DNA of 56,314 bases from a virus. Lineage: Duplodnaviria > Caudoviricetes. The stretch spans positions 1 to 56,314 of IMG/VR virus record IMGVR_UViG_3300032282_004923; one strand, given 5' to 3'. A program made the position numbers and the translations under genes. This document shows positions 24,042 through 39,571 of the stretch, piece after piece (the first letter of the stretch is position 1; the number at the start of each line of letters is the position of its first letter). The notes under the pieces were generated by a model. The model was not told where the DNA came from. It worked only from the letters and a program-made list of their open reading frames with translations, and ran no database searches.

Positions 24042-24560
24042 AGTTGTCCCTTCGACGTTATAACTAAGACTAGAGGTACATCTAGTTTATATACACTTTT
24101 ACTAGTACTTACTGTTACTACCTTTAGTTTAGGTAGTAAAAGACAAGAAGTTTATTACCCATAAATTCTCTCAGCTTTGCTGAGAAATTTACTGGAGACT
24201 AGTTACTCTTCCTATAGCTGAAAATTACATCGTCCATGCAATTAGAGGCAGCACAAAAGAACCTTGCTGAGTTACAGGCAAAGTAAATTGGAAGGTTTTT
24301 GGCCGGCCTTCGATTGGTGAAGCTCACAAGATACACGAGCTTCGGGTGGTTGTCAAGTCAAGTGACTTAATAACTTTGCAAAGTATATACACGCTCTTCC
24401 GCCACCGTCAACTCCTAACAAGGAATTTTTTGGGCTGTTAGCCCCGGTTGCGCATCTATTGGTGTAAAGTTTTTTTGGGAGGTCTCCCCTTCGCCTCCCA
24501 CGAGTGGGGTGCGGCCGTACAAGTTTTGTAGGTGGCTTGCTACGGCCCCCCACTCACTAC

Positions 24561-25073
24561 TTACTCGAGCTCCAGGAGAAACGTTTCGGCTGCCCACATG
24601 ATGCCGATAGCTGCATAGCCGGCGACGTCAAGAAGATTGTCCTTTAAAGATTCATTGCCTGGTTCAAGACCGCGGGTCACGAGGTTCTCGAGACGTGCAA
24701 TCTTGTCGTGGCAGCGGACCACTAGGCCCAGGAGACCAAAGCGTGCAATGTTCTGGTGACCGTAGTCGCGCTGCTTACGTACCAAGGTAGACGTCAGCTC
24801 GTCCCAGCTAAAGCTATGGCCAGTGTTGCGCGCGTAAGCATATGCTGCATACCCGGTCTGGGCCCATGCATCCACGACCTGGTCGAGGTCTGGGTCCTGC
24901 ATGACTCGAGCATCGATTGCCACAAGACCCTCTACGCGGGTAAATTTATGGCGAATCTCGTTAACCGATATGGCCGGCATGGGGGTTGCCTCCGAGATGA
25001 GCTCTACCGCTCCCGCGGCAGCGGAATTCCAAGTTGGCTGTGGAGCCAGATGAGAATAGGTACGTGCGTTCAT
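24561..25073 (-). CDS. Nucleotide-modification-associated domain protein (DUF1599/Nmad1-like)
   Basis: KQRDYG...GLVVRCHDKIARLENL...ESLKDNLLDVAGYA. Confidence 0.8.
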   Translation of the reverse strand: MNARTYSHLAPQPTWNSAAAGAVELISEATPMPAISVNEIRHKFTRVEGLVAIDARVMQDPDLDQVVDAWAQTGYAAYAYARNTGHSFSWDELTSTLVRKQRDYGHQNIARFGLLGLVVRCHDKIARLENLVTRGLEPGNESLKDNLLDVAGYAAIGIMWAAETFLLELE

Positions 25074-25113
25074 AGTTTAAAGACTAGTACGTCTCTTCCA
25101 CCACCGTCAAAGG

Positions 25114-25317
25114 CTAGCGAGAAGTTTTTTGTGGAGCCAGGGATTTCTCGCCCTCGATGCATTCCATAATCTGGCTCTTCGACGTGTGAGATTTTTTGTT
25201 TCGACAAACGGGTGCACAACTGAGCGCGACGAATACTTCTATTCGATTGCTGCACTTCGGGCATTTCCAGACGCGTTTGTTTTTTTCCACAGAAGCGATA
25301 ATACATGCATCAGCCAC
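25114..25317 (-). CDS. Small Zn-ribbon protein
   Basis: WKCPKC...PVC...H. Confidence 0.55.
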   Translation of the reverse strand: MADACIIASVEKNKRVWKCPKCSNRIEVFVALSCAPVCRNKKSHTSKSQIMECIEGEKSLAPQKTSR

Positions 25318-25319
25318 TA

Positions 25320-25376
25320 TTAAGCGCTAACCATGATGAAAATAAATATTCCAATGAATCCAATTAGATTACCCAT
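25320..25376 (-). CDS. 18-aa hydrophobic micropeptide MGNLIGFIGIFIFIMVSA
   Basis: TGATG overlap with upstream stop; fills the gap between genes. Confidence 0.55.
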   Translation of the reverse strand: MGNLIGFIGIFIFIMVSA

Positions 25377-25585
25377 CAGCTCGAGGCCTTTAGCTCGTTA
25401 ATCATTTTTAAACCCTTGTAAGCTACTTCGTCCCAGGACTGGCCCATGTATTCTTCGGCGATATCGACGTCACTGACTGGACCGTCCGCAACTTGAACGT
25501 GCAGTGAAATAAGAATAAGCAGCAGAGCTTCTTCAGCTGAGTCCGCCAGGCTAATGGCCGGCGTCTTGATTTTTTTCTTAGTCAT
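25376..25585 (-). CDS. Hypothetical protein
   Basis: 69 aa ORF in operon. Confidence 0.6.
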   Translation of the reverse strand: MTKKKIKTPAISLADSAEEALLLILISLHVQVADGPVSDVDIAEEYMGQSWDEVAYKGLKMINELKASS

Positions 25586-25919
25586 TATGTACCTTCTGAT
25601 GTATAGAGCGAAGAAGTTCTTTTACTTCTTCTTGTTCTTCGTGAGTGAACTTATGTTCGTCGATGATTATCGAGCGCGCTACCAGGGCCGTAATTGTTGG
25701 AACAACTATGAACACTGCGGTAAAAACCAAAAGCATCCCAGCTCCGCGGCCGACGAGAGACCTTGGATATTGGTCTCCGTAGCCGACTGTAGTAAATGTC
25801 ATGAATGCCCACCAAACTGCATCACCAGTTGAGTGGTGCTCCGCTGCCACGTACGCAATTACTGCAGTTACGTAGACGCTAGCCAGGAGCGAGCTTAAAC
25901 GTAGTAGTTGTTTCTTCAT
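25578..25919 (-). CDS. Two-TM potassium channel (KcsA-like)
   Basis: DAVWWAFMTFTTVGYGDQYP selectivity filter between two TM helices. Confidence 0.92.
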   Translation of the reverse strand: MKKQLLRLSSLLASVYVTAVIAYVAAEHHSTGDAVWWAFMTFTTVGYGDQYPRSLVGRGAGMLLVFTAVFIVVPTITALVARSIIIDEHKFTHEEQEEVKELLRSIHQKVHND

Positions 25920-25973
25920 GGGCTAATACTTCCATAGTCTTCCGCCACCGTCAACCGCTAATAACAAAAATAT

Positions 25974-26234
25974 TTAGCGCGCTAGGTTTTTATTATGTGA
26001 AGACACTGACGGATGAGCTGAGCCCACGTTCTCGAGCGTGTCTGAGTTATAAATAGTTTCGCAGCGATTGCATATGTAGTGCACGCCGTCCCATTCCTTA
26101 GGCGTCGGGGGTACATGCATCCCACGTGATGTACAGGTTTCAAACCCGTCACTGCGCGGGTTGTTACCGCACCCACATACAAACCAGTCACTGGATGTTT
26201 CTTTTAAATTCAAGTTCATGCGGACGCCTTTCAT
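25974..26234 (-). CDS. Hypothetical Cys-containing protein
   Basis: CGCGN...CNRC; ATGA overlap; start uncertain. Confidence 0.6.
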   Translation of the reverse strand: MKGVRMNLNLKETSSDWFVCGCGNNPRSDGFETCTSRGMHVPPTPKEWDGVHYICNRCETIYNSDTLENVGSAHPSVSSHNKNLAR

Positions 26235-26374
26235 TCTGAACTCACAAAACCGCACCAGAACCCATGGGCCGTTAGGAGGTCTGCGATTTTATCCAGGCAT
26301 TCACCATCAGTGTGGTCTTCGCCTGGAAGGTTTATGATGCTGGCGATTTCCTTAAGCAGGTCTTCGTTATTCAC
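26231..26374 (-). CDS. 47-aa protein, tandem paralog of 26367..26531
   Basis: GTG start, MNNEDLLKEIASIINLPGEDHTDGECLDKIADLL; absent from the ORF track. Confidence 0.7.
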   Translation of the reverse strand: MNNEDLLKEIASIINLPGEDHTDGECLDKIADLLTAHGFWCGFVSSE

Positions 26375-26531
26375 CTGTATCTCCTGTTCGGTTGATTGTT
26401 GGGTAGACGGGTCCGTAGCCGTTTTGTTCTAGCAGGTCGCAGACCATTTCTAGACACTCGCCATCGGTCGCAAGCTCCCCATCGATGCGCATGATGCGAA
26501 TTATTTCTGCCATTAGCTCTTCTGAGGTCAT
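26367..26531 (-). CDS. Hypothetical protein (TDGECL motif)
   Basis: MTSEELMAEIIRIMRIDGELATDGECLEMVCDLL. Confidence 0.7.
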   Translation of the reverse strand: MTSEELMAEIIRIMRIDGELATDGECLEMVCDLLEQNGYGPVYPTINRTGDTGE

Positions 26532-26687
26532 GTTGGGTTCTCTTCCGTTGTGAATATACAATGCCAGCACGTCATACTAAAGATGTGTTCATCGTCAAGC
26601 ACGACGGCTGATAGTACACCACCCTTTATCAACGTGTCACATTTTATGCAGGTATTCGTGTGATGTGTGAGTTCTTCTTGTTTCATG

Positions 26688-26885
26688 TTAGAGGTCTATA
26701 CTTGTCGTGATGAACGGGAGGACCTTGTCGTCGATAAATATTCGTTCTTCATCAGTGACGTCGCGAAAGATTCCGTCGTCATCCATGGCTTCAGATATTG
26801 ATGAGCTGAAGTTCATGTCTACAAATATTTTGCCGTTATCGTCGACAGTGACGATTACTATAGGGCACAGGACAATCTGTTTCAT
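26688..26885 (-). CDS. Hypothetical protein
   Basis: TAATG overlap with upstream gene. Confidence 0.6.
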   Translation of the reverse strand: MKQIVLCPIVIVTVDDNGKIFVDMNFSSSISEAMDDDGIFRDVTDEERIFIDDKVLPFITTSIDL

Positions 26886-27055
26886 TATTTTACCTTCTTC
26901 TTTTTAGACAGGCAGTTGATGCATGTGTAGATAATGATTGCTGGGGTTACATCGTCTTTGATGTCCAGCGAGCCGTAGTAAGGCTCCCATAGCTTTTTAC
27001 ACCTATGACAGTGTGTGTAGGTAGGAGCTTCGAAGTCGTCTTCGTCGTGGTCCAT
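26885..27055 (-). CDS. 56-aa Zn-finger-like protein
   Basis: MDHDEDDFEAPTYTHCHRC...CINCLSKKKKVK; GGGGG RBS; absent from the ORF track. Confidence 0.65.
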   Translation of the reverse strand: MDHDEDDFEAPTYTHCHRCKKLWEPYYGSLDIKDDVTPAIIIYTCINCLSKKKKVK

Positions 27056-27134
27056 GATTTCCCCCTGGTAAGTAGTTAGTTAGGTATGGGGTGCACGCTA
27101 CACCCAACACCTCAGTTTTCCAATATGACGTTTG

Positions 27135-27356
27135 TCACATCTTGACGAGCACACGATGTTGCTCGACCCATTGCTCTCCACTGCCATTGAGTGGCTTGAC
27201 TAGTAAGTCGAGGTGACCGAAACGAACACGGACGTCGGAGATTTTTACACCGACAGTGAGTCCTTCGATTGACACTGTTCCTACTTCGCCTTTGAAGCGT
27301 TGTGGGTTTAATTCCTCAATTGAGGCTTTGCTATACGTACGTACAGGTTGTTGCAT
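27135..27356 (-). CDS. Hypothetical protein
   Basis: AAGGAG RBS; VKISDVRVRFGHLDLLVKP...GEQWV. Confidence 0.7.
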   Translation of the reverse strand: MQQPVRTYSKASIEELNPQRFKGEVGTVSIEGLTVGVKISDVRVRFGHLDLLVKPLNGSGEQWVEQHRVLVKM

Positions 27357-27558
27357 GTCTGCTCCTTCTTAGCACTCTGATGTGCTGAGTGCTAACGCTA
27401 CCGACTACACCCTGCAAACCACAACCTCTCACGTAGGAAAATCTCGAGGGCCCTCTTCCACCACCGTCCGGTAGTCGAGTAGCCCCGCGGGGGAAGAACC
27501 GGTTCCGGGGCCCCAGAGTTCCGCCGCAGCCGGCTGCCGGAGAAGTAGTGTCAAGGGT

Positions 27559-27948
27559 ATGACAAGTACATCAAAATGGGACAGAAACATAGACGCTTTG
27601 CGGGATTTTGTAGGGAAACACGGTAGTGCCTTGGTTCCAACAGCTCATAAACACGAGTTTGACGGGAAGATTGTTTCTCTCGGAGCTTGGGTGAGCTACT
27701 TGCGTATCAAGTATCGCGGCGGTCTGGTTAGCCCCGATAAGATTTCCCAGTTGGAGTCTTTCCCTGGTTGGTCTTGGGGGCCTTGCAAGCCTGGCCCTCT
27801 CGGTAATCCCGACAGAGACAAGAAGATGATAGAGATGCGCACTAACGGTAGTAGCCTGCAAGCCATCGGTGACGAGTACGGTCTGTCTCGTCAGCGTGTT
27901 CATCAGATACTTGGCAGACTTGGATACAAGGAAAAAACAAATGCGTAA
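27559..27948 (+). CDS. Helicase-associated (HA) domain plus sigma70 region-4-like HTH protein
   Basis: HG...VP...LGAWV...R.KYR.G......LE..PGWSW; SLQAIGDEYGLSRQRVHQI. Confidence 0.8.
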   Translation: MTSTSKWDRNIDALRDFVGKHGSALVPTAHKHEFDGKIVSLGAWVSYLRIKYRGGLVSPDKISQLESFPGWSWGPCKPGPLGNPDRDKKMIEMRTNGSSLQAIGDEYGLSRQRVHQILGRLGYKEKTNA

Positions 27949-28183
27949 CGAGGACTTTCATCGCCCTTACACAAAGTCGGGTGTGTCAGAAGGCAGAGCC
28001 GTAGTGTTAGGAATAATCATTAGTGGGCTTGTCTATGGGCTTACACTTTGGACAACGCTATGGTTTGTCCGTTCGTCAGGTATCGCTTCGTGGCAAATGC
28101 CATTCTGGAAATGCGTTCTTCTGACCGACTTGATAAACGCGCTGCGACTTTACGACCAGCAGGTATTCAGTAAAAAACAGTAG
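27941..28183 (+). CDS. Small membrane protein
   Basis: AAGGA RBS; TM helix. Confidence 0.6.
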   Translation: MRNEDFHRPYTKSGVSEGRAVVLGIIISGLVYGLTLWTTLWFVRSSGIASWQMPFWKCVLLTDLINALRLYDQQVFSKKQ

Positions 28184-28217
28184 GGTCTTCCACCACCGTC
28201 AGGTGGTAGTGATGAGT

Positions 28218-28439
28218 TTATTCTGACTGTCGGAAAACCATCAGCCCTGCGACTGATGAACCTTCGTGCGTTGGGTCTGCGAGTGCAATACCTGTTACCC
28301 ACGCTTCTTTTGGTAGTGGCTGTGTCGGGTCATCGCCTACTATGCCACGCACCTTCTGTATCGCTTCGCTAATCGCTTCGCCGTCTGAGTGTGCTTCCAC
28401 ATCTACGCCGACCATAACTTGTACTCGGTACTTGCTCAT
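28218..28439 (-). CDS. Hypothetical protein
   Basis: MSKYRVQV...VEAHSDGEA; start inferred. Confidence 0.6.
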   Translation of the reverse strand: MSKYRVQVMVGVDVEAHSDGEAISEAIQKVRGIVGDDPTQPLPKEAWVTGIALADPTHEGSSVAGLMVFRQSE

Positions 28440-28528
28440 CGCTGTCTTTCTGCCCGTACCTAAGTGTCGGGTCTTTCTTTTGCTCGCCTCTACGGGCTTC
28501 CTGTGAGCCACTTTCTTTGAGATAGTCA

Positions 28529-28565
28529 GGCAGGTGGGGAGAAAGGGGGTGAAGCCCCACCTGCC
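28529..28565 (-). terminator. Stem-loop after the VWA gene
   Basis: GGCAGGTGGGG...CCCCACCTGCC; no clear U tail. Confidence 0.4.
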
Positions 28566-28580
28566 GACAACTAGCCACAC

Positions 28581-30089
28581 TCAACGATAAGTGAGTGTGT
28601 GACCTGTGCGCTCTTGATAAGTGTTGGCAAGGTGGCTCGGAACGATGCTACGCACCTTCTCGCCCTTGCTCATCGCTTTGAGCATTGCTATCGCTTGTTC
28701 AGGTGTCTCTGCCGTGTAGATACCAAACTGTTTTACGAGTCCGATACATTCCATAACTAAGTCCACTCCCCAACTATCGCCTACGCCCGTGACACCACCA
28801 TCTGTTACCCAGATTAGAGGCGAGTTGGAACGCTGACGCTTAGAGATAGCCCAACGGATAGCAGGCGCATCTACGCCATTGCCACCGTTAGGGTCAGGAA
28901 GGTGACTTACGCACTTTCCCTTGTTAGCGACAACATAAAGGTTGGGCTTATTGCTACGCCCACCTGAATACTGAGCCACGAGAGCCGATGGTGCGTTGAG
29001 TACCATCTCCATTACTTCATCGTGTGACAGGCTCATAGAACCACTTGTGTCAATGAGTACAACTCCACCAGCACCTTTCACAGTACGGTCAAAGATACGC
29101 TTGTCGGGGTCTGTGAGTAGGCGAGACATACGGCGTGGATTACGCCCCATATTGGTAGCGATACGCTTACGCCCTAACGCACCCATTACATTACGGTCTA
29201 GCATCGGTGTGGAAACTTTTAGTTTTTCCCATAGTGCGTCACGAGACTTTTTAGGAATACTGCCACGAGCGTTCCAACCCTTGTTCGCATCTATCCAACC
29301 TTGTCCAGCCTTTTCTAAGGCTTCTTTGGGGTCAGTTGCTTCTGTGCCTTCGCCAGCAGGCTGACCTTGTGGCTGACCACTCGGATTATCCGTGAGTGCG
29401 CCTACTACTTCCTCTACCCACTTGGCGTAGTTTTCTACATAGCCAAATCCCGATAGGTGTATGCGTGAGTGCGTACCACCGAGAGTTTGTACGCCGTGAC
29501 TTTTTATGATGTTGTTGTAATACTCAACACCTTTGTCTGTGATGTAAGTAAGGTACTCCACCCACTCAGGGTGGTGCTTAGATATTCCAGCAAGGTAGTC
29601 GCCGTATCCAGCAGTATTGCGATAGGCAATACAGGTAGCAACGGCGTTCAGAAAGTCACCGTGCTGTGCTGTGCGTTCACCATCTAGGCGTTCACTCCCG
29701 TCACGCAAGTGTGTCTGTGGGTCAAATCCTGAGTGTTCTAAGAGCATATTTACTCGTAGTTCTTCACACACAGTCATTGTCACTTGTTTTGCGTATCCAC
29801 GAGCAATCCACTTGTCAAACTGTTTCGCATTGGGTGAAACTTTTGCGTGAACCATCTCGTGACCACGAATAGTGCGAGAGTGTTCATCGTCATACAACGG
29901 TACAAACATTTCACGGTCTGTCACATTGGTCTTTGGCTCACCACGCTTCGCTTCTACGCCCGTGATGTTCCAACGCTTGTCTTTGCCTGTGTTGTCGTTA
30001 CGACCTAGCATCTCAGGCTCAGGGCTTTGGGGCGTGAACCCCTTAGCCGTTATCTGAGTGCTTATCGGGTCATCTGTTATGCGTGACAT
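28581..30089 (-). CDS. VWA-domain protein with N-terminal HExxH motif (MoxR partner)
   Basis: HEMVH; LIDTSGSMS MIDAS; VTDG. Confidence 0.8.
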   Translation of the reverse strand: MSRITDDPISTQITAKGFTPQSPEPEMLGRNDNTGKDKRWNITGVEAKRGEPKTNVTDREMFVPLYDDEHSRTIRGHEMVHAKVSPNAKQFDKWIARGYAKQVTMTVCEELRVNMLLEHSGFDPQTHLRDGSERLDGERTAQHGDFLNAVATCIAYRNTAGYGDYLAGISKHHPEWVEYLTYITDKGVEYYNNIIKSHGVQTLGGTHSRIHLSGFGYVENYAKWVEEVVGALTDNPSGQPQGQPAGEGTEATDPKEALEKAGQGWIDANKGWNARGSIPKKSRDALWEKLKVSTPMLDRNVMGALGRKRIATNMGRNPRRMSRLLTDPDKRIFDRTVKGAGGVVLIDTSGSMSLSHDEVMEMVLNAPSALVAQYSGGRSNKPNLYVVANKGKCVSHLPDPNGGNGVDAPAIRWAISKRQRSNSPLIWVTDGGVTGVGDSWGVDLVMECIGLVKQFGIYTAETPEQAIAMLKAMSKGEKVRSIVPSHLANTYQERTGHTLTYR

Positions 30090-30097
30090 CTCTCCCC

Positions 30098-30841
30098 CTA
30101 CTTTTGTGTAGAGAGAGAGTTCACGGCAATAGCGTCAATGATGCTTTTGGCGCGTTCGCCAAATACCATAGTCGCCGCCTTTTTTGTTCCGAGTGCTGTA
30201 CGCAACTTGTCAAAGGCGTAGAACGAACGGAGAGAGATACGGCGTTCACCTGCGTCACACATCTGACGAGCGTACTCACGCAAGTCCTCACTCATTTTCA
30301 TTAGTGCTGACGGGTGTGGCTCGTTGATACGGATACACACAGGGAAACGGTCTTTGAGTGCCATCGGCAACTCGTTCATCTGCTCAATGTTTGTCGTCAT
30401 TACAACAGAGAAACCGTCACGGGGTACGACCATCTCACGGGTCTGTGGGTGTTCCCATTGTGCGCTTTCAGGGCTGTCTGTCATTGCTAGTAGTGTTGCG
30501 AACACATCGCCACCAGCCTTGTCAATCTCGTCAATAACAAGACGACCACCTGAGACACCATCTCCACGCCACGCACGGATAGCCTGTCCGTCTAACCACG
30601 ACCACGAACCGTTGTCGTTAGGTTGCCAGCAACCTGTGACATCTGAGTTGGTCATATCGTCAGTACAGATAAGACGGTAAGCACCACTATCGGTGTTTCC
30701 GTAGTTCAGTCCAGCAAAGGTCTTGCCTGTTCCAGCAGTTCCAAACAAGATAAGTCGGTCAATGCCTGCTTCCAGCGCATCGCTTACTTGTTGCCAGCAG
30801 TCGGGCAGTTTGTAGCCCTCTGTTTCTAGTATTGTTGCCAT
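30098..30841 (-). CDS. MoxR/CobS-like AAA+ ATPase
   Basis: GTAGTGKT Walker A, LVIDEID Walker B, TTN, ALKDRF. Confidence 0.9.
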   Translation of the reverse strand: MATILETEGYKLPDCWQQVSDALEAGIDRLILFGTAGTGKTFAGLNYGNTDSGAYRLICTDDMTNSDVTGCWQPNDNGSWSWLDGQAIRAWRGDGVSGGRLVIDEIDKAGGDVFATLLAMTDSPESAQWEHPQTREMVVPRDGFSVVMTTNIEQMNELPMALKDRFPVCIRINEPHPSALMKMSEDLREYARQMCDAGERRISLRSFYAFDKLRTALGTKKAATMVFGERAKSIIDAIAVNSLSTQK

Positions 30842-30877
30842 TGCTTCCCCTTTCGTGGGAGTTAGTAGGTGAGTTTG

Positions 30878-30931
30878 AGTGTAGCCACTTTCTTAGTAGC
30901 ACACAACTTGGTAGCCACTTTCTTAGTGGCT
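30878..30931 (-). promoter_or_regulatory. Promoter TTGTGT-17-TACACT with duplicated GTAGCCACTTTCTTAGT operator
   Basis: Direct repeats at 30881 and 30911. Confidence 0.65.
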
Positions 30932-30937
30932 GTTCTT

Positions 30938-30975: not shown

Positions 30976-30987
30976 GAGACTTTATGA

Positions 30988-31392: not shown

Positions 31393-31832
31393 TGTGTTCC
31401 CCTTTCATTGGGACTTGTAGGTGACAAGGAACAAGTTACAAGTGGTAAGGCAAAAACACAAGTTATTTCTTTGTGTCTTTTGTCACACTCACAGGGCTTG
31501 TTCGCTGTATGAGTTGTAAAGGTACAGGTGACAAGGCGCAATAGCAAGTCTTTTGTTTGTGTCGTTTGTCACAGGCTCGGCAGGTGGAGATGGGGTGAAC
31601 AGGGAGAGAGAAAGAGTTGCTTAGAGATACTGACTTCCACCACCGTCGTAGTAGTCGGAGCCCCGCCCGCCGCTGCCGCCCGCGGGGCTTCCAGCCAGAT
31701 GTCTGTGATGTCCAGCATCACGAAACTGACTTGTCGTGAGTGTGTGACAACTGCCACAAAGAAATAACTTGCTATTTATTACTATGACTTGTAAGGTACA
31801 AAGCGTACATCTATCCCACGAAAGGGGACATA

Positions 31833-32291
31833 ATGGAAAATCCAATGGTGGACACGGCTTCCCGTGCCAACACCGAAATCAAGGAAGGTGGCTCACGGTT
31901 CCAAATGGAATACGGAGTTATCTTTGCTATTACATCTGAGGGCTTTCGCACCTTACTCACTAACGAGGACATTTACGAAGGGCTACACGCCGTACAAGGT
32001 ATGACGCTTCTTCCTGATGAACTCGGTATTGGTCTTGTCTCAACAGGTTGGGCTTCACCAATCCCACCTGACTTTGACGGTGACGAAGATGAGATAACTG
32101 CGCCAAGCCAACACCCTGAGAAACGCCGTGTGCGCCTTGTGACTTGTGTGGACAAGTCGTTGCGTATGGGTTCTGCCTTGTGTTTCCAAGACGACCCTGA
32201 CGAAATGATTACTGACGAAGGTCAAGCAACAGGCAATCTCGCTATCGCCGTGCGTAACTCACTTATTGCTATGCTTGCTAAGGCTGAATAG
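31833..32291 (+). CDS. Hypothetical protein
   Basis: GAAAGGGG RBS; GWASP...PSQHPEKRRVRL. Confidence 0.8.
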   Translation: MENPMVDTASRANTEIKEGGSRFQMEYGVIFAITSEGFRTLLTNEDIYEGLHAVQGMTLLPDELGIGLVSTGWASPIPPDFDGDEDEITAPSQHPEKRRVRLVTCVDKSLRMGSALCFQDDPDEMITDEGQATGNLAIAVRNSLIAMLAKAE

Positions 32292-32355: not shown

Positions 32356-32477
32356 TGCTGTACCCAAACAGAAGGTTCTTCCACCACCGTCGTTGTAGTA
32401 GCGCAATCTCTGGGGCTGGTAGCCCCGGGGTTTTATTCCCAGATGGCATCTGGTTCTGGGAGTGTGTGTTGGGCAAT

Positions 32478-32598: not shown

Positions 32599-32840
32599 TT
32601 TGGTAACCCTGTGTAAGCAACAATCTCCCACAGTTTCTTTGCGTGTATCTGCTTTGCGAGGTCAAGAAGTACAGACATCATTCGTTCGTCTGTAAGACCG
32701 TGCTGTAAGAAAGACCCATCTACCGTTTCGTAGAGAATGGTCATAAGAGCATCACCCCCAGTCGCATCTAGCGTGTAGTAGTTCTCGTCAAAGAGTTCTA
32801 CCAGTTCTTCGTTTGTTAGGTCTGATAGTTCTGTTGTCAT
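32595..32840 (-). CDS. Hypothetical protein
   Basis: ATGA overlap. Confidence 0.65.
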   Translation of the reverse strand: MTTELSDLTNEELVELFDENYYTLDATGGDALMTILYETVDGSFLQHGLTDERMMSVLLDLAKQIHAKKLWEIVAYTGLPK

Positions 32841-33058
32841 TCCAATACTGTCCAATCATCTTCGCTGCGAATAAGTCCAAGAGTAGAGCCACTATCCCAC
32901 TTTATGTGGAATGTGCCTAAGTCGTCTATGTCGGTAATGACACCTTCATCCCCTTTGGAGAGTTTGGTGAACGGGTCGGATGAATAGTTGAGGCGCACTC
33001 GCTTTCCAACAAGTGCGCCACGCAACCAATCTTTTGTGAGTTCAGTAATCTTGTTCAT
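32837..33058 (-). CDS. DUF4314-like protein
   Basis: G.RVRL....DP...L..GDEG.I..IDD.GT.HI.WD.GS.LGL...ED. Confidence 0.8.
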   Translation of the reverse strand: MNKITELTKDWLRGALVGKRVRLNYSSDPFTKLSKGDEGVITDIDDLGTFHIKWDSGSTLGLIRSEDDWTVLE

Positions 33059-33642
33059 TAGCAAATCTGAAATCCACCACAGTTCGCGAGAAATGTTACG
33101 AACTGACGGATGTTGTCTTTGTCAATGTGGTAGTCCTTGGCGAAAGGCTTTTGCCCACCGGAACCGTTACAGGCATTACATTCTTTGACTTGCTCAATCC
33201 AGCCTTCTGCTAATTCTAAATCTTTGTAAGCAGGAAGCCTGTCCTCGTGTGTGAGTGTATCCATAAGACTGAACTCGTAAGCAGGAACTTGGGTTACCTC
33301 GCCAGCAGTTGCTTTGGGGTTTATGTGCCAAGTGCGCTGACCAGTTGCCTTACAATGAGGGCAGGGGCGAATAGGCAACGCCTCTATTTCTGCGTCACGG
33401 TCTGCTATGTACTTGTCTGCTGTTCCGTCACGCAAAGATTTACGCAGAGCCTTTGCTAGAAGCACAGAGTCGTCTCCGTCAAGCCCGTCACCATCGTTGC
33501 TGTATGCGAACTCCACCAACTCGGTGAGGTCGGGTGCGACAAACTCGCAGTATTCCCACAAGGGTCGCCACCACCATACATTGTTACGGAAGTACGCACC
33601 TTTTTCATTCTTTGGTTCTACACCAAATACATCCATTCCCAT
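33058..33642 (-). CDS. Hypothetical protein with DnaJ-like CxxCxGxG motifs
   Basis: MGMDV...YFRNNVWWWRPLW...CPHCKATG...CNACNGSG...GGFQIC. Confidence 0.75.
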   Translation of the reverse strand: MGMDVFGVEPKNEKGAYFRNNVWWWRPLWEYCEFVAPDLTELVEFAYSNDGDGLDGDDSVLLAKALRKSLRDGTADKYIADRDAEIEALPIRPCPHCKATGQRTWHINPKATAGEVTQVPAYEFSLMDTLTHEDRLPAYKDLELAEGWIEQVKECNACNGSGGQKPFAKDYHIDKDNIRQFVTFLANCGGFQIC

Positions 33643-33944
33643 TGGATACCCCTTTCATTAGGTGTGTTGAGTGTACCTGACACATAGCAGTAGTCAAGAG
33701 TTTTCTTTGTGTCGTTTGTCACACTTGTACAAGTTGTTGTACAAGTCCAGTAGTGGGTGTTACCTGATTAGATAACACAGTCAAGTTCAGAAGGGGGGGT
33801 CATCCGCCACCGTCGTAGTTCTCGGCTGCCCCGGAAAGAAAAACCCCGCCGCGGGGCTAACCCCTTCACCCTTCGCAGAAGCGTCCCTGATAGGCACACA
33901 TTTACACAACTTGCCTGAGACTTTCCTGTGTGACGAAAGACACA

Positions 33945-33973
33945 TTGACAAGTTGTTGCTTATTCCCTACACT
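33945..33973 (+). promoter_or_regulatory. Sigma70-type promoter TTGACA-17-TACACT
   Basis: Near-consensus hexamers directly after operator 33929-33944. Confidence 0.8.
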
Positions 33974-34007
33974 TACCACTACCTACTAATACCCAAGGGG
34001 GGTAACA

Positions 34008-34577
34008 ATGGAAGAAATACCAACACCACAAGAAGTGGTTGAGTTCGTAGCCGAAAAAGCAAAGTTTGCTAAGTACGCTTGGTGTGAGGACAATGAAGGA
34101 ATGGCTGACGCACCACCTCTGCTTATGGGGCAGTTCCCTGACGGCACAGGTTTCATTATGCCTGACCTTATGGAAGGACACCCTTCCGATACTCTGCCTG
34201 TGTTGCTATCTGCTTTGATAGAGGCAATGGAAGAACACAACGGTACTGCCGAATACTCTTGGCTCGCTTATGTCGTAGAGGGCTACTATCGCCCCCAAAC
34301 AGACGAGATGCCTGACGGCTGGAAGCGTGGAGACTTAGAGCAGGAATACAAGACCAACCCAGTATCAGATGTTCGTGAGGGCATCATTGTTACTGTGTAC
34401 CCTTGGGACGGCGAGAGCCACGCCAAGACCATTCCTGTAAGTGTCGGAGACAACGGTCTGCCCGTGTTCGGTGACATCTCTGACGAGGGCATCGGCATCG
34501 GTGGTGGAGTAATCCCCACCATCTTTGAGGGCTTTCGCAAGTTCTGTGGGATAAAAGTAAGCGCACAGAACAACTAA
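34008..34577 (+). CDS. Hypothetical protein
   Basis: AAGGGGGG RBS; own promoter and terminator. Confidence 0.8.
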   Translation: MEEIPTPQEVVEFVAEKAKFAKYAWCEDNEGMADAPPLLMGQFPDGTGFIMPDLMEGHPSDTLPVLLSALIEAMEEHNGTAEYSWLAYVVEGYYRPQTDEMPDGWKRGDLEQEYKTNPVSDVREGIIVTVYPWDGESHAKTIPVSVGDNGLPVFGDISDEGIGIGGGVIPTIFEGFRKFCGIKVSAQNN

Positions 34578-34588
34578 GTTCCCCCAAC

Positions 34589-34627
34589 AAAGGGGTCGTC
34601 TGCTGAAAGGTGGGCGACCCCTTTTTT
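34589..34627 (+). terminator. Intrinsic terminator
   Basis: AAGGGGTCGTCTGC...GTGGGCGACCCCTTTTTT. Confidence 0.8.
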
Positions 34628-34707
34628 GCTGTCTAAGAACAAGTCATCCACCACCGTCAAAGTAGTAGCGCATTGCTATCGCATCGCAGCCCCGGTAAGA
34701 TATCCAG

Positions 34708-34917
34708 ATGAGTAGTTATGCGATGTTCCGTTGTGTGTTTTGTGACAATCCACTAAATGTTGGAGACTCAACTGTTATGAAACAGGTTGTTTGTTGGGTG
34801 CGTTCTGATAACAACACATCTCCCAAGGGGGCGCAAAGCCAACATCGCTATGCTCACGCAGTTTGTTTAGAGGTGGAACTCCACAGCAAGCCTAAACAGG
34901 CAGAAACTTTGTTCTAA
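34708..34917 (+). CDS. Small Zn-binding hypothetical protein
   Basis: CVFC...HAVC. Confidence 0.55.
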   Translation: MSSYAMFRCVFCDNPLNVGDSTVMKQVVCWVRSDNNTSPKGAQSQHRYAHAVCLEVELHSKPKQAETLF

Positions 34918-34967
34918 CTAATAGCGACTACGGCAAAAGCGATAATCAAGATAACAATAAAAGTCAT
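34914..34967 (-). CDS. 17-aa hydrophobic micropeptide MTFIVILIIAFAVVAIS
   Basis: ATGA overlap; similar to three other peptides in the window. Confidence 0.7.
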   Translation of the reverse strand: MTFIVILIIAFAVVAIS

Positions 34968-35392
34968 TGGTGCGCCTTGCGCCAGCCACCATTGCCATCT
35001 CCGAGATACACGATGCTTTCTGTTCCCTCGGTAAGCCAAGTCCAACACCAGCGACAGCAAGAAGGAACTTCTGTCCCTGTACCCATGTTATTCGGGTGGC
35101 AACCACGGTCACCCATCTTTTCTGCCAGCAACGGGAATGTCGTAAGGAACTTTACAACGCAATCGTGACACAGCCACCAATGCTCATACTCGTCTCCCCC
35201 GATAAGAACGCCGATGTCGTCATCAAAGCCGTTGTAGTAACCGAAGTGTTTATGTGGCAAGAACCAACCCGATGGGGCTGGCTCTGCTAACTGTTCTCCC
35301 GAACGGAGCGTGATGAGATGTTTGTTGTAGGTTTCCCCACACGCTGAACAATCAACCGTTGTAGGAATAGGTGTTGTATCCGTAAGGGTCAT
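34964..35392 (-). CDS. Hypothetical Cys-rich protein
   Basis: CSAC...GYYNGFDD...LCHDC...CCRWCW; start inferred. Confidence 0.65.
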   Translation of the reverse strand: MTLTDTTPIPTTVDCSACGETYNKHLITLRSGEQLAEPAPSGWFLPHKHFGYYNGFDDDIGVLIGGDEYEHWWLCHDCVVKFLTTFPLLAEKMGDRGCHPNNMGTGTEVPSCCRWCWTWLTEGTESIVYLGDGNGGWRKAHQ

Positions 35393-35561
35393 AGACCGTT
35401 GTACTCGTTTCGCAAGGGTAGTGATAATACTCGCAGTCGGGGAGACCTTGCTTTTCGTCCCCGATAGAGCCAATAAGAATGAGTGTCGCACCGATGAGGC
35501 TTACCCAAAAGACAAAGCGTACGCAAGAGCGAACTGTGTAATAGACGGGTGGGTGGTTCAT
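35352..35561 (-). CDS. Small membrane protein, paralog of 39572..39754
   Basis: YYTVRSCVRFVFW...PDCE..H.PCE..TT.YDPYG. Confidence 0.75.
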   Translation of the reverse strand: MNHPPVYYTVRSCVRFVFWVSLIGATLILIGSIGDEKQGLPDCEYYHYPCETSTTVYDPYGYNTYSYNG

Positions 35562-35644
35562 CTGTCATCTCCTGCGAGAATGATTGCCATAAGAAAGACA
35601 AGCCCGAGAGGCAGACTCATAATGACTGCGAGTAGAACTTTCAT
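35558..35644 (-). CDS. 28-aa membrane peptide MKVLLAVIMSLPLGLVFLMAIILAGDDR
   Basis: ATGA overlaps at both ends. Confidence 0.6.
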   Translation of the reverse strand: MKVLLAVIMSLPLGLVFLMAIILAGDDR

Positions 35645-35937
35645 TTGACCACCAACACTTTTTCCATCTTTTCCATAAACTTTTTCATCACACGTATTTG
35701 GTCTTTGCCAGCCCAGCCGTACTCACCTGCGTTTACCCACCAGTTGCATTCGGCAAGCATCCCCCAAAGAACGAACTGAGTGGTCTCTACGCAGACGGTG
35801 CGCCTGTTGCGCCACTTGACCTCTAATGGGTGCTTGATGTCGTTTGACTCGTCGTAGCGCATATCGTCAAGAATGCGTGACTCCCACTCGTGAAACAGAT
35901 TGTTGCTGACCGTGAAGGTGATGAGAGGTGACTGCAT
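35641..35937 (-). CDS. Hypothetical protein (probably leaderless)
   Basis: ATG 6 nt after the TACCTT -10 hexamer. Confidence 0.65.
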   Translation of the reverse strand: MQSPLITFTVSNNLFHEWESRILDDMRYDESNDIKHPLEVKWRNRRTVCVETTQFVLWGMLAECNWWVNAGEYGWAGKDQIRVMKKFMEKMEKVLVVK

Positions 35938-35943
35938 AACTAC

Positions 35944-35972
35944 AAGGTACAGGGTGTAAGGCGTAATGTCAA
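35944..35972 (-). promoter_or_regulatory. Sigma70-type promoter TTGACA-17-TACCTT
   Basis: Adjacent to operator 35973-35988. Confidence 0.75.
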
Positions 35973-36307
35973 TATGACATTTGTCACAGGGTGGAGAAGC
36001 AAGAGAGGGAGTGAGTAAATAGAAAGGGGGCGACAAGAGAGAGAGTTCTTCCACCACCGTCGTTCTAGTCGGAGTCCCGCGTTGCGCAGCGGCTTGCCGG
36101 GGCTGCCATCTTCCTGCTGCGGCAGCGGCGCATGGAAACTTGACTTGGCTTGCAGTTCGTGTTACTTTGACGCTATGAAGTTTGTAGTCATACTTGTAAT
36201 AGCCTTTATCGTTGTGGGCATGGGGTGACAAAAGACACACTTTTAGTATTTGACTAATGGCTACTAACTTGGTAGCCTGACATTCTCAACTCACAAAAGG
36301 GGGAATC

Positions 36308-36664
36308 ATGACCGATTCTGTCATTGAGTGGGAGGGGATAAGCAATACCTCTGAGGATTGGCAGTGGGATATGGCGACAGACTTGTTCGCCATGACCGCC
36401 GAAGTGCTCATTGCTCATAATGAGGAACTCAACGAAGGCGACACTTGGTGGCGTGTTCAGGGTTTCCCGTTGTGGGGCGGTGGGCGTGACGGCATATTCC
36501 GCGCTGACAGTCCAATGGAGTTGTTGGAAAAGATTACCGTTCGTTCGGATTGGTCATTGCGCTACACGCTTGACTCCGAAACAATGGTACTCACTTGTCA
36601 CCTCTCTCACCACGATGCAAGCGGGCAGTTCACGGTGCAGGCAACGCCTAATCCTGACCGCTAA
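36308..36664 (+). CDS. Hypothetical protein
   Basis: G-rich RBS; own promoter and terminator; SHHD motif. Confidence 0.8.
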   Translation: MTDSVIEWEGISNTSEDWQWDMATDLFAMTAEVLIAHNEELNEGDTWWRVQGFPLWGGGRDGIFRADSPMELLEKITVRSDWSLRYTLDSETMVLTCHLSHHDASGQFTVQATPNPDR

Positions 36665-36681
36665 TCCAACCAACCACAAGC

Positions 36682-36712
36682 AAGCCCGTCTCCGTAAGGG
36701 GGCGGGCTTTTT
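36682..36712 (+). terminator. Intrinsic terminator
   Basis: AAGCCCGTCTCC-GTAA-GGGGGCGGGCTTTTT. Confidence 0.85.
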
Positions 36713-37086
36713 GCGTTGTCTCCACTCTTGCGCTTGCTGTCATCCGCCACCGTCGTAGTAGTAACTGGGACATCGGCAGCCCCGCTACCCGATGTCCCAG
36801 GTGTGCCACGTCGCCTGGTTTGAACGTGAGCGTTTCGTGTTTGAAAAAATAAAAACTGAGAAAACTGCAAAAAAGAAACAAAAAGTTGGAGAAAAGTAAA
36901 ACTTTTAGCGAAAAACTTGAAAAAACAAAAGTTTGTTGCTATGTTGCATCCCCGTTTTCACGTAGCAACCGGCTTCGTGCGCGCGAGTCCCGATACGGCG
37001 AGCTCGCTCGCGGGGCTTCGGCACGGCTCGTCGCCCTTCGTCGCCGCCGCTGCCAGTCCTTCGTTGCGCCTGTGACAACTGCCACA

Positions 37087-37115
37087 TTGACATTGTCGCC
37101 TGCACCCTGTACCAT
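37087..37115 (+). promoter_or_regulatory. Sigma70-type promoter TTGACA-17-TACCAT
   Basis: Directly after operator 37071-37086. Confidence 0.8.
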
Positions 37116-37121
37116 ACAAGT

Positions 37122-37499
37122 ATGAGAGGGGGTGAAATGAAACTAACAAATACCGAACTGTCGCTAATCGCATTACGCAACGCTGACCGTTCAGGTCGTG
37201 AGTGCGACCCGCACGAAGTTATCGCTCAAATGGGCAAGATGAACTTTTTCGCGGTGTGCGGTGGTAAGTGGGCAAAGATAAACGCTAGTGATGGCGTGAC
37301 TATCGGCTTACTGATGCCGTGCGGAGAAAGTCGTGCGGTTGAGGTGATACTCAACTTCTTAGACCTTTACGAAGTGCGCCGTGTGCGCCGTGTGAATCGT
37401 GGCGATGCAAAAGGCTCGCTAGTCGTTGAGTACGAAGTGCTTGATGTCTATTGCGAGAATCTAGGCGATGCTGTCTATTCCGCTTCCTGCTGGAAGTAA
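37122..37499 (+). CDS. Hypothetical protein
   Basis: Start 37122 or 37137; DLYEV...DVYCENL. Confidence 0.8.
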   Translation: MRGGEMKLTNTELSLIALRNADRSGRECDPHEVIAQMGKMNFFAVCGGKWAKINASDGVTIGLLMPCGESRAVEVILNFLDLYEVRRVRRVNRGDAKGSLVVEYEVLDVYCENLGDAVYSASCWK

Positions 37500-37527
37500 T
37501 CCAACCCAACAACCCAACTAACCGAGT

Positions 37528-37560
37528 GCGCCCGTTCCCGAAAGGGGGCGGGCGTTTCTT
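37528..37560 (+). terminator. Intrinsic terminator
   Basis: GCCCGTTCCC-GAAA-GGGGGCGGGC followed by GTTTCTT. Confidence 0.8.
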
Positions 37561-37752
37561 GTTGTGTGCCATCTTCCGCCACCGTCGTAGTAGTAACAGC
37601 GCTGAGCCTTGCAGCCCCGCTGGTTTTTGTTTCCCAGTCAGGTTGCGAAGAAGGGCGTGTGGGGCTTTGAGATGTGACAAAAGAGTGCTTGCTTTTCTTT
37701 GCTGGTGCTTGTACCCTACACCTGTTACCTAACTATCCCTAAGGGGGGTCAA

Positions 37753-38166
37753 ATGCCAACAGTAGATTATGACGGAATACAGATGATGTATGAGTCAGAC
37801 ATAAACAAGTCAGAGAGTGGTCTTATGGAGTCACTTATTGACGCTGTCAAAGATGGCGAGTTATCGCCTTTCGTCTTCACGATGGAGTGGTCTATCTGTG
37901 ACTACTGCCGTGGTGGTGGTGGACACTCTCGCCGTTTCGGTGCGATGACATCAGATGAGTTCGCAGAGTGGAGCGATGAGTCTCGTGAGGCGTATATGCG
38001 TGGTGCTTACGATGAGCGTTGCGATGCGTGTAACGGTCAAGGCAAAGTTTACGAGATGAACGAGAAAGACCTGCCCGAGGAAGTCCAAGAGTACATCGGG
38101 CGATATCGCTCAGACGCTTACGAGTCTGCTTCCACCTCAGCAATGGAACGCCGTTTCGGTTGCTAG
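37753..38166 (+). CDS. Hypothetical protein with CxxCxGxG Zn-finger motifs
   Basis: CDYCRGGG...YMRGAYDERCDACNGQG...ERRFGC. Confidence 0.8.
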   Translation: MPTVDYDGIQMMYESDINKSESGLMESLIDAVKDGELSPFVFTMEWSICDYCRGGGGHSRRFGAMTSDEFAEWSDESREAYMRGAYDERCDACNGQGKVYEMNEKDLPEEVQEYIGRYRSDAYESASTSAMERRFGC

Positions 38167-38222
38167 TGGTTACCGTTGCGCTCATCATTAGTATCGCCGT
38201 CTTAGCCGTAGCCATTTCCTAG
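38166..38222 (+). CDS. 18-aa hydrophobic micropeptide MVTVALIISIAVLAVAIS
   Basis: TAGTG overlap; sits before terminator; paralogous. Confidence 0.65.
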   Translation: MVTVALIISIAVLAVAIS

Positions 38223-38237
38223 TCACCCGACCAAGAG

Positions 38238-38277
38238 AGGTCGCCTGCCCTTAGAACGGGGGTGGGCGACCTTTTTT
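38238..38277 (+). terminator. Intrinsic terminator
   Basis: AGGTCGCCTGCCC...GGGTGGGCGACCTTTTTT. Confidence 0.8.
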
Positions 38278-38814
38278 GCGTACCCGTAGAGGCATCTGTA
38301 AGGCTCGCAGAGGCGAGATAACCATTGCTTGCTCATATCCGTACCCCAACAACTACCGAGGGCTTTTGAGTCGCAGAGTAATCCAGTTGGGGTTTGTCTT
38401 CCACCACCGTCGTAGTAGTGAGAGGTGGGTCTGGCAGTCCCGACTGCCAGACCCAGATGTCCCAGTCTTCTGGGGGAAAGACGATGCGTGGGATTCGGAC
38501 ATTAAGTTTTTATAAAAACCAACTCAAAAAAACAAAAGTTTGACGAAAAAAGAAAAAAAACTTAAAAACTTTGAGGAAAAACTTGAAAAAGAACGAACGC
38601 TTCGCTAGGGTTTGCCCGTTTCGCCCGTGCGAGCGCGCGAGTCCCGTTGGAGCGGGTTTCCCCGCGGGACTACCCAGAGGCCCCCGGCCGCAGCTCGAGC
38701 TTAGGTTTGGCGGCCGCAGCTCGAGCTCGGATTATCAAACCAGGTGTGTCAAATGTCACTGTGTTGTTGCGCCTTATAGGCTGTACCATCTACCTCTTCT
38801 AAAGAAAGGTATCT

Positions 38815-39018
38815 ATGCCGGAGTTTTATCCGGAAGAAACCAAACACCAAAAGTCAAAAAGGTTTAGTAACTCATCAGGAAAGATGGTCAAAGCATTTAG
38901 CCACACAAAGTGTGGTCGGTGCGACACCATAATTGTTGAGGGAACAGAATGTGTTTGGCTTCGCAGTAAAGGTTGCTTCCATAAACAGGGCGAGTGCCCA
39001 CCCAAAGAAGACCGATGA
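38815..39018 (+). CDS. Small Zn-binding hypothetical protein
   Basis: CGRC..I..G...W.....H...C. Confidence 0.7.
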   Translation: MPEFYPEETKHQKSKRFSNSSGKMVKAFSHTKCGRCDTIIVEGTECVWLRSKGCFHKQGECPPKEDR

Positions 39019-39068
39019 CTATTTTAATTATCGTTCTCATTGCAGTAATAGTTGTAGCGATGTCCTAG
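39015..39068 (+). CDS. 17-aa hydrophobic micropeptide MTILIIVLIAVIVVAMS
   Basis: ATGA overlap; sits before terminator; paralogous. Confidence 0.7.
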   Translation: MTILIIVLIAVIVVAMS

Positions 39069-39093
39069 CCCCCCAAGGACATTGCTCTTACAG

Positions 39094-39129
39094 AAAGACC
39101 CCGTGCTAAAAAGTGCGGGGTTTTTCTTT
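39094..39129 (+). terminator. Intrinsic terminator
   Basis: ACCCCGTGC...GTGCGGGGTTTTTCTTT. Confidence 0.75.
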
Positions 39130-39571
39130 GTCTTCCGCCACCGTCGTAGTAGTAACTGCTCCCTTCGGAAGCCCCGCTTTCCGAAGGGAGTGTCGCTCAG
39201 CGCACGTTCGCCGTCGCTAAAAGGAACTTCGCAAAAAAAATAAAACTCAAAAACTTTGTTTTCTCGTCAAAAAAGTCAGAAAAAGAGAAAAAGTTGCGAA
39301 ACAAACTTGACAAATGAAAAAAACTTGTTATGTTGCTGGCTTGCGGGGGGGTGTGTCACAGTTTTGCCATCTTCCGCGCGGGAGCCCCGTTACTACTCTC
39401 GAGTAGTAACGGGACTATGAAGCCCTCAGCCAGAAACTTGCTGGGGCGAGGAACTGCGTTCTTTCTTTTCTTGCGTGTTGGCGGCTGCGTGAAAGTAAAA
39501 AAAGAAATGCTTGACTTTTGTTTGTGTGGGGTGTACCTTGTAAGCAGGTGGAGACCTACCCGAAAGGAACT

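Follow-up and report, generated by a model that had tools for sequence, protein, structure and literature searches.

A directly repeated 15-base word bounds transcription units in an uncultured whiB-encoding phage clade and may serve as a regulator site and exchange point

The stretch of DNA analysed here (the window) is a complete viral record of 56,314 bases, IMG/VR record IMGVR_UViG_3300032282_004923, which has a completeness estimate of 38% and is a piece of an uncultured whiB-encoding phage of about 150 kb. Between positions 24395 and 39145 it contains an array of 14 direct + strand copies of the word TCWTCCRCCACCGTC(R), here called E1, which divide the array into 13 one-directional transcription units (U1–U13). 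Related phages, which make up a large clade, carry E1 on one strand of a single region, mostly upstream of genes that run leftward, and in the lineage of the window the units have been permuted with E1 at every junction. We give a probability of roughly one half to the reading that E1 serves a phage regulator as an asymmetric operator or promoter element, standing at the head of leftward units, and doubles as a recombination linker. The candidate reader, termed HA-sigma4, is a protein of 129 amino acids in which an HA domain is joined to a helix-turn-helix (HTH) of the sigma-70 region 4 type; it is encoded inside the array on the motif strand (27559–27948, +).

Results

A whole-window scan returned 13 exact matches to E1 and one copy with a single mismatch (31633, ACTTCC...). 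These are the 14 + strand positions given in an earlier note on this DNA, made from the sequence alone, and the gaps listed there equal the coordinate differences. Its statement that no copy lies outside the interval or on the − strand was found to hold for the whole 56,314-base record. Chance can be ruled out, because 100 dinucleotide shuffles gave an expectation of 0 against the 14 copies observed. With three mismatches allowed, the window yielded 19 matches against 3.4 expected by chance, and the five outside the array are scattered and are not E1 copies. The degenerate remnant that the note had placed at 39370 shares only the first 8 bases of the word and was missed even at this threshold.

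Alignment of the copies showed that the conserved word really spans 16 nucleotides (nt), with A or G at position +16; on the − strand it reads (T)TGAC GGTGG YGGAWGA. The conserved 15–16 nt have no internal symmetry and do not form an inverted repeat. Coding sequence was considered and rejected, as the three − strand frames yield no consistent open reading frame or peptide. According to gene calls based on codon usage, every copy is intergenic, as had been claimed, save that at 36047, which touches the 5′ end, itself uncertain, of an open reading frame.

Sigma70-like matches and terminators belong to the units themselves, six of which are leftward (U1–3, U5, U7 and U9) and seven rightward (U4, U6, U8 and U10–13). 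The earlier description of the units as self-contained was borne out in that each is one-directional. The conserved core of the array (28581–30841, −) belongs to leftward U5 and encodes a 502-amino-acid protein of unknown family, which had no match among phage records or PDB sequences, together with an AAA_5 ATPase.

Seven copies (24395, 25094, 25938, 27454, 31633, 33800 and 36047) lie upstream of a leftward unit. Three of these separate tandem leftward units and are followed on the − strand by the same type of layout, namely TTGACG, a spacer of 17–18 nt whose first 11 bases are E1 itself, a TAnnnT-like box, and ATG after 6–7 nt. At 24395–24409 the sequence is TTGACG-18-TATACT, a sigma70-like leftward promoter match with an A-tract upstream. 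The copy at 25094–25108 heads the leftward gene 24561–25073 (TTGACG, 18 nt, TAGTCT, 7 nt, ATG, a leaderless-type arrangement), and that at 25938–25952 heads the leftward genes 25376–25919 (TTGACG, 17 nt, AAGTAT, 6 nt, ATG). The three nearest starts in the window lie 18–20 nt from E1 with a −10-like box in between, a layout typical of leaderless actinobacterial transcripts. The other four copies of this group occupy divergent gaps: 27454–27468 between leftward U3 and the rightward HA-sigma4 gene; the mismatched copy at 31633–31647, 240 nt upstream of U5, the AAA ATPase operon; 33800–33814, 157 nt upstream of leftward U7, where a separate sigma70-like match is present (33697–33670, −); and 36047–36061 at the head of leftward U9.

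The remaining seven copies sit past the 3′ end of a rightward unit. The copy at 28186–28200 lies 238 nt past the stop of the + strand HA-sigma4 gene and points back into it, a convergent layout that is conserved in relatives. The copies at 34644–34658 and 37572–37586 follow + genes (34008–34577 and 37122–37499) with terminators at 34589–34624 and 37528–37555, respectively; that at 36740–36754 follows + gene 36308–36664 and its terminator, that at 38397–38411 follows + gene 37753–38166, and the last copy (39131–39145) comes 4 nt after the terminator 39092–39127. A terminator scan placed a + strand terminator 4–31 nt before four copies (34644, 36740, 37572 and 39131). The claim that six copies closely follow such a terminator therefore stands for these four and fails for 32377–32391, which lies in the convergent gap past + gene 31833–32291 with the + terminator (32408–32430) coming after the motif.

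An exact scan of viral contigs returned many with several E1 copies on one strand, and five related genomes (G001–G005) were compared with the window; three are closed and complete, at 138–158 kb. G003 and G004 form one lineage with the window, and G001, G002 and G005 are more distant. The scan of both strands that the earlier note had proposed, run on window and relatives, located E1 on one strand and in one region in 5/5 relatives. The counts by strand were 8/0, 9/0, 16/0, 11/0 and 9/0, with 0 for reversed-pattern controls. The region spans 12–18 kb in each genome and occupies the same place in the gene order, directly after homologues of the window genes 20478–22387. An analysis of E1 position relative to genome ends was dropped, because the 'terminal repeats' (121–127 bp) in the complete relatives seem to have arisen as overlaps in assembly and so say nothing about physical ends.

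Loci picked solely by HA-sigma4 homology gave the same picture. E1 is present at up to one mismatch in 56 of these 80 loci, with 366 copies on the strand of the HA-sigma4 gene and 0 on the opposite strand. The 8-mer core CCACCGTC occurs 403 times on the gene's strand against 18 times on the other, where chance would give about 16 per strand. Some subclades have variants of the 5′ half (CTTTCC, CTATAC or GTTTAC) and keep CCACCGTC unchanged. A 17-mer scan of bacterial genomes produced single scattered matches in the estimated chance range and no arrays among the at least 120 matches listed.

Other words are repeated near the HA-sigma4 gene in relatives with variant E1 or without E1: GTAGTAGGTA in loci L194, L196 and L217, CTACCTACCTAC in L216 and L220, and GCTGTCAAGTCA in L193 and L196, with 4–10 repeats each. 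These words may be alternative control sites.

Gene direction in the relatives clarified the strand bias of E1. Nearly all genes of the region in G001, G002 and G005 run opposite to the E1 strand, and E1 is found at the head of leftward operons. Only leftward genes lie downstream of 7/8, 8/9 and 7/8 copies in these genomes (22/25), the sole exception in each being the copy behind the rightward HA-sigma4 gene. A second set of 43 non-redundant related loci with 228 E1 copies contained 191,355 coding bases opposite to E1 and 57,946 on its strand (77% opposite); the left-hand neighbour is leftward, and E1 hence upstream of it, for 161 copies, 59 of which are within 60 nt of the start. From these gene directions and positions, the E1 strand is the antisense of a leftward-transcribed block. 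The window genes at 31833, 34008 and 36308 have leftward, operon-embedded homologues elsewhere, but in the window, G003 and G004 each forms a rightward unit by itself, equipped with a promoter-like sequence and a terminator. The reported polarity of E1 whichever way the genes run is thus correct for the window but not for the more distant relatives; it is a peculiarity of the window/G003/G004 lineage, in which single genes were turned to the + strand.

Features of a promoter recur beyond the window in a subset of copies. Among 145 copies, 73 read TTGAC, T precedes GAC in 114, and 29 have an upstream A-tract. TAnnnT is enriched 6–7 nt past E1 on the − strand, which corresponds to a 17–18 nt spacer from TTGACG; it was found there in 24/145 copies, 23 of them belonging to the 73 that read TTGAC. 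In the second set TAnnnT occurs at offsets 5–7 in 33/228 copies. The distance from E1 to the gene start ranges from −17 to >400 nt, and in G001 at 12656 E1 stands directly before or overlaps the start codon (GGTGGAAGAG-ATG).

Flanking sequences differ with the position of the copy. In divergent gaps, E1 precedes an inverted repeat of the type AGCCCCG..CGGGGCT (AGCCCCG..CGGGGC after 27454, AGCCCCG..CGGGGCT after 31633 and AGTCCCG..CGGGGCT after 36047), and copies behind rightward units are followed by GTAGTAGTAAC. Three of the latter continue into a 12–13 bp stem of unique sequence with the loop GCCCCGC or GTCCCGA (z −4.5 to −5.4): 36740, where GTAGTAGTAAC precedes a 12-bp stem with the loop GCCCCGC (z −4.5), 38397 (13-bp stem, z −5.4) and 39131 (z −4.8). 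Eight flanks were folded and the hairpin beat shuffles in these three; the inverted repeats at 27469, 31648, 33815 and 36062 and the flank at 37587 folded no better than shuffles. When copies of the window and relatives were pooled, the heptamer AGYCCCG was found 6–30 nt downstream of E1 in 50/144.

AGYCCCG and its complement CGGGRCT are themselves restricted to a region. In the window they lie between 24440 and 40025, at 17 + strand and 6 − strand sites, and the corresponding region extends over 12.8–47 kb in G001 and 0.3–47 kb in G002. They often form a hairpin of AGCCCCG, 16–25 nt and CGGGGCT. In G001 the hairpin occurs 13 times and its conserved flanks are extended (..CACCCGTGTT.. GGGTGGG before, CCTGCCCC after); these hairpins are located 120–260 nt upstream of leftward genes and are found past the E1 region as well. 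Their role may be that of terminators, or of control sites of a second class. Just past the supposed remnant at 39370, an inverted repeat with arms of about 10 bp (CCCGTTACTA .. TAGTAACGGG; 39385–39413) includes GTAGTAAC, a word found after several E1 copies. CCAGATG recurs about 45–65 nt past several copies (31690–31700, 32440–32450, 34700–34710 and 38450–38460, and also in G003 and G004).

The HA-sigma4 protein is encoded inside the array in 5/5 genomes, always on the E1 strand, and its gene was found in at least 336 viral contigs. In relatives the end of the gene is usually followed within 1–25 nt by an E1 copy pointing back into the gene. The recognition helix LSRQRVHQI is invariant despite an overall identity of 36–66%. 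An AlphaFold model (predicted local distance difference test 83) has two helical domains, of which the C-terminal one is weakly similar to sigma A domain 4 and to LuxR-type HTHs; a fold search gave no match at E ≤ 0.001, and where its HTH aligned locally with those of sigma A domain 4, DosR and resolvase, the likeness was no more than suggestive. From its linkage to E1, its orientation and the matched invariance of helix and motif, we infer that HA-sigma4 is the most likely reader, which would bind E1 either as an activator or as a repressor. Alternative candidates are a MarR-like winged-helix protein left of the array (19625–20062, −), below Pfam cut-offs except for HTH_24 and kept in 4/5 genomes, and the WhiB-family transcription factor encoded at the left edge of the array (22368–22733, +), which might act via host sigma A region 4. 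No full sigma factor or sigma region 2 protein was detected in the genomes searched. A search for a T7-type polymerase gave no match, but its control was also silent, which makes this negative weak.

Unit order differs within the lineage of the window. The order is 5-6-7-8-9-10-11-12-13 in the window, 5-8-7-6-9-x-10-11 in G003 and 5-6-7-10-8-9-11-13 in G004, with constant unit orientation relative to E1 and an exact or one-mismatch copy of E1 at every junction. Homology stops 1–4 nt past E1 in three comparisons (window 36755 / G004 3476; G003 38666 / G004 4357; window 37589 / G003 45487), and in three G003/G004 pairs it begins exactly at E1, with offsets 0/0 (38648 / 1237; 40840 / 4339; 44096 / 2752). 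The breakpoints at the motif that the earlier note had proposed to look for among relatives exist, several of them exactly at E1, but one falls at a gene start. Close-strain contigs from four other metagenomes are collinear over stretches of 12 kb and 3 kb that span many E1 copies.

Searches for a recombinase were negative. Tyrosine integrase (PF00589) was found in 0/5 genomes, three of them complete, with a search control positive in 14/14 genomes, and Pfam searches of the same five genomes returned no serine recombinase or resolvase, RecT or RecA. Cassette shuffling, as the earlier note had called it, is therefore supported as an evolutionary reordering with several breaks at E1, but not as the work of a dedicated system: no recombinase was found and close strains are collinear. 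Compared with an active site-specific system, occasional homologous exchange between direct repeats is the better fit.

The contigs from other metagenomes also showed strain-level indels or replacements, 66–183 bp long, at 26507–26691, 26989–27081, 35555–35661 and 37640–37710. The indels at 31705–31790 and 37640–37710 lie 55–70 nt past an E1 copy, in the hairpin region and not in E1.

Discussion

We propose that E1 is an asymmetric DNA site for a phage-encoded regulator. In a clade of freshwater phages that encode whiB, it would stand at the head of each leftward transcription unit of the accessory or early-type region. The compact form of E1 would supply the −35-like TTGACG and the first 11 spacer bases of a sigma-A-type promoter, often continued by a TAnnnT box and, 6–8 nt further on, a start codon. 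Because they match this layout, the window copies at 24395, 25094 and 25938 are counted in favour of the proposal. In tightly packed operons E1 would instead sit in tiny gene junctions, in the manner of stoperators. The reader would be the conserved HA-sigma4 protein, 125–130 amino acids long and encoded within the array. E1 may also be a crossover point at which whole units are swapped and re-ordered, because the same 15–17 bases recur in direct orientation at every unit boundary. In the lineage of the window, seven units now run rightward with promoters and terminators of their own and with the orientation of E1 retained, which would account for the apparent polarity regardless of gene direction. 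A unit moved by exchange from E1 to E1 takes a copy along, so that rightward units, too, would come to be bracketed by the motif.

The closest functional parallel seems to be the stoperators of Cluster A mycobacteriophages (L5 gp71-type), an analogue that the earlier note had set aside. One study describes Cluster A operators and stoperators as asymmetric sites that overlap promoters or sit in short intergenic gaps, with an orientation fixed to transcription, and that are read by a monomeric two-domain repressor (PMC9283540). On that description they share with E1 their occurrence in actinobacterial phages as asymmetric multi-copy sites of about 13–15 bp at promoters and in short gaps (PMC9283540). 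Their orientation is tied to the direction of transcription, as is that of E1 in most relatives (22/25 copies in G001, G002 and G005; 161/228 overall) but in only 7/14 window copies, and for E1, too, a two-domain HTH protein of small size is available as a plausible monomeric reader. Unlike E1, which has another sequence and is confined to one region of 12–18 kb, stoperators are spread genome-wide; half of the E1 sites in the window are reversed relative to the adjacent gene; and the candidate reader combines an HA with a sigma-4-like domain. The phage is probably not temperate, since no integrase was found.

For the evolution of the array, the nearest likeness is to the promoter-early stem-loop cassettes (PeSLs) of T4-type phages, for which homologous exchange between direct repeats is documented and mini-circles have been shown, according to two studies (PMC2839356, PMC4122927). 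Both combine a repeated promoter-type motif with an AT-rich upstream tract and associated stem-loops, and both lie among small genes of unknown function in hyperplastic DNA, at junctions where units are exchanged between relatives. For E1, TTGAC is present in 73/145 copies, TAnnnT at the canonical distance in 24/145, and stem-loops at many but not all copies. Hosts and phage groups are unrelated, and a PeSL consists essentially of a host sigma-70 consensus and a terminator, whereas E1 keeps only TGAC of the −35 box and adds an invariant 11-bp extension. As this extension is not part of the host consensus, it implies a specific reader. The best explanation at present would be that E1 is stoperator-like in function and PeSL-like in evolution, in an uncultured phage clade. 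No publication on E1 or its candidate reader was found; full texts searched with 12-mers of the motif gave only unrelated primer-type matches.

If this holds, an abundant clade of uncultured freshwater actinobacterial phages would gain both a regulatory code and a candidate regulator for its accessory region. E1 would also offer a clear example outside the T4 group of a short regulatory word that acts as a 'linker' for modular gene exchange, and a protein made of sigma region 4 only that reads a −35-like box would represent a new phage route to interference with host transcription.

Several observations weigh against the proposal. Half of the window copies (7/14) are directed at the 3′ end of a rightward unit and have no obvious target. 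TTGACG is kept in only 4/14 window copies, the rest reading CGACG, GGACG or CTGACG; TAnnnT is missing at the proper distance in 121/145 copies; and in the alignment of copies no downstream element or −10 position is fixed across all. In G001, G002 and G005 the copy that heads the homologue of 24561–25073 overlaps a 5′ end that is apparently translated, since the indel between these genomes is in frame (6 nt), and E1 could then not be the −35 box of that gene. With these features and its variable distance to gene starts, E1 does not behave as an ordinary promoter. As to the reader, no alignment column among 41 distinct HA-sigma4 proteins discriminates between the E1 variants (TC.. against CT../GT..), and the co-occurrence of motif and protein may reflect shared descent alone. 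With regard to exchange, some alignments that start at E1 join paralogous copies, so that the motif may itself have anchored them, and a gene start, not E1, marks at least one homology break (G004 ~2495 / G003 ~43094). In the contigs from four metagenomes, 11 joints were listed, all of them away from E1.

The alternative that survives best, though we consider it unlikely, is that E1 forms the core of a phage-specific class of leftward promoters at which host RNA polymerase is redirected by a phage factor, with no need for a repressor or roadblock. The factor might be WhiB bound to sigma A region 4, or a sigma-4-like protein that replaces this region, and both a WhiB and a sigma-4-like protein are encoded nearby. 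The MotA boxes of phage T4 middle promoters are conserved elements at about −30 that replace the canonical −35 box and are paired with a host-type −10; E1 resembles them as a conserved box in the −35 place with a host-type −10, but it lies at no constant distance from gene starts. Homologues of MotA or AsiA were not seen, in analyses that included no search aimed at them. A promoter class would agree with the place of E1 upstream of leftward operons, with the −35-like TGAC, the preceding T, the enrichment of TAnnnT at canonical spacing and the A-tracts, and with the window starts 18–20 nt past E1, which are compatible with leaderless transcripts. It is harder to reconcile with start distances from −17 to >400 nt and copies that overlap coding 5′ ends, with the lack of a fixed downstream element, and with half of the window copies pointing into terminators of rightward units; nor was a sigma region 2 protein or T7-type polymerase detected, the latter with the weak control mentioned above.

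We consider improbable a dedicated attC-like cassette system in which E1, alone or together with the hairpin beside it, would be the crossover site and circles would be excised and reinserted by an unrecognised recombinase. Like an integron, the array consists of units of about 0.7–1.5 kb separated by a polar site that keeps one orientation whatever the gene direction, and unit order varies between relatives. E1 brackets all units, leftward and rightward alike, homology breaks fall at its edges, three copies are followed by hairpins with variable stem and conserved loop, and E1 is invariant across genomes whose proteins are 35–65% identical. Integrons, however, have an IntI-type tyrosine integrase beside the array, of which none was found in the five genomes, and attC, an imperfect inverted repeat (R''-L''...L'-R'), takes up its fold in single-stranded form, whereas E1 is asymmetric. 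Integron cassettes are mostly promoterless and served by a common promoter; in the E1 array, units of both directions occur, with sigma70-like matches and terminators of their own. The absence of recombinases from the Pfam searches, the collinearity of close strains across E1 with 0/11 listed joints at the motif, and the fact that in distant relatives E1 follows gene direction and promoter geometry all speak against such a system. A variant without an integrase, in which E1 and the variable-stem hairpin would be the crossover site and circles would re-enter at any E1, guided by an E1-binding protein for which the HA and sigma-4-like protein, with an HTH also weakly similar to those of resolvases, is a candidate, would explain why rightward units are bracketed by E1 in fixed orientation; to this, too, we attach a low probability.

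The two remaining readings are very improbable. A polar DNA-handling signal, whether a Chi-like exonuclease regulator, a programmed nick or a signal for replication, packaging or injection, would suit the absolute strand polarity, and the − strand reading of E1 contains GGTGGTGG, which we take to resemble Chi sites of the GNTGGTGG type. Chi sites and FtsK-orienting polar sequences (KOPS), however, are short words found genome-wide with a skew tied to replication or DNA ends. E1, by contrast, has a length of 15–16 nt, which known Chi sites do not nearly reach, follows gene direction in most relatives, and is confined to 12–18 kb of genomes of 138–158 kb, always at gene-unit boundaries; a genome-wide signal of this kind is not supported. 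Equally improbable is an action of E1 as RNA, as a leader, ribosome-binding region or processing site in leftward transcripts: the − strand word is purine-rich and Shine-Dalgarno-like (GGUGG) and precedes or overlaps start codons in some relatives (such as G001 at 12656), but its start-codon spacing is highly variable, the −10-like box between E1 and the three nearest window starts places E1 upstream of the transcript, Rfam gave no match, and no consistent peptide arises from E1.

Genome context and host

The host is probably a freshwater actinobacterium, as indicated by two WhiB-family genes (22368–22733, and a second WhiB-like gene at 46805–47113), a proteasome-like gene, and the similarity of the primase to those of Arthrobacter, Gordonia and Microbacterium phages; identity to the Arthrobacter phage primases is 30–35%. 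No nucleotide match to the window was found among cultured phages, and near-identical DNA is present in freshwater and drinking-water metagenomes from several studies. Freshwater actinophages that encode whiB are a known, mostly uncultured group, as described in the COBRA paper on these phages, in which the word 'promoter' is absent (PMC10914622). The presence of two WhiB-family genes on one phage fragment agrees with the multi-whiB subclades of freshwater actinophages described there (PMC10914622).

Tail genes on the + strand occupy 1–18 kb of the window, followed by the small-gene region at 22–40 kb; helicase, primase-helicase, ribonucleotide reductase and tRNA-Arg genes lie to the right of this region. 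An Rfam scan of the window returned tRNA as its sole match. Auxiliary genes encode a tryptophan-halogenase-like protein (2509–4005), a glycosyltransferase (9482–10540), a proteasome-subunit-like protein (21734–22387) and a PAPS-reductase-like protein of the cysH or DNA-modification type (43270–44418). In the replication module, a 217-amino-acid protein (48898–49551, +) belongs to PHROG 645, labelled 'Rnase E', and has a weak N-terminal match to sigma-70 region 4. It is a second sigma-4-like protein, and its homologues in G001 and G002 exceed the Pfam cut-off.

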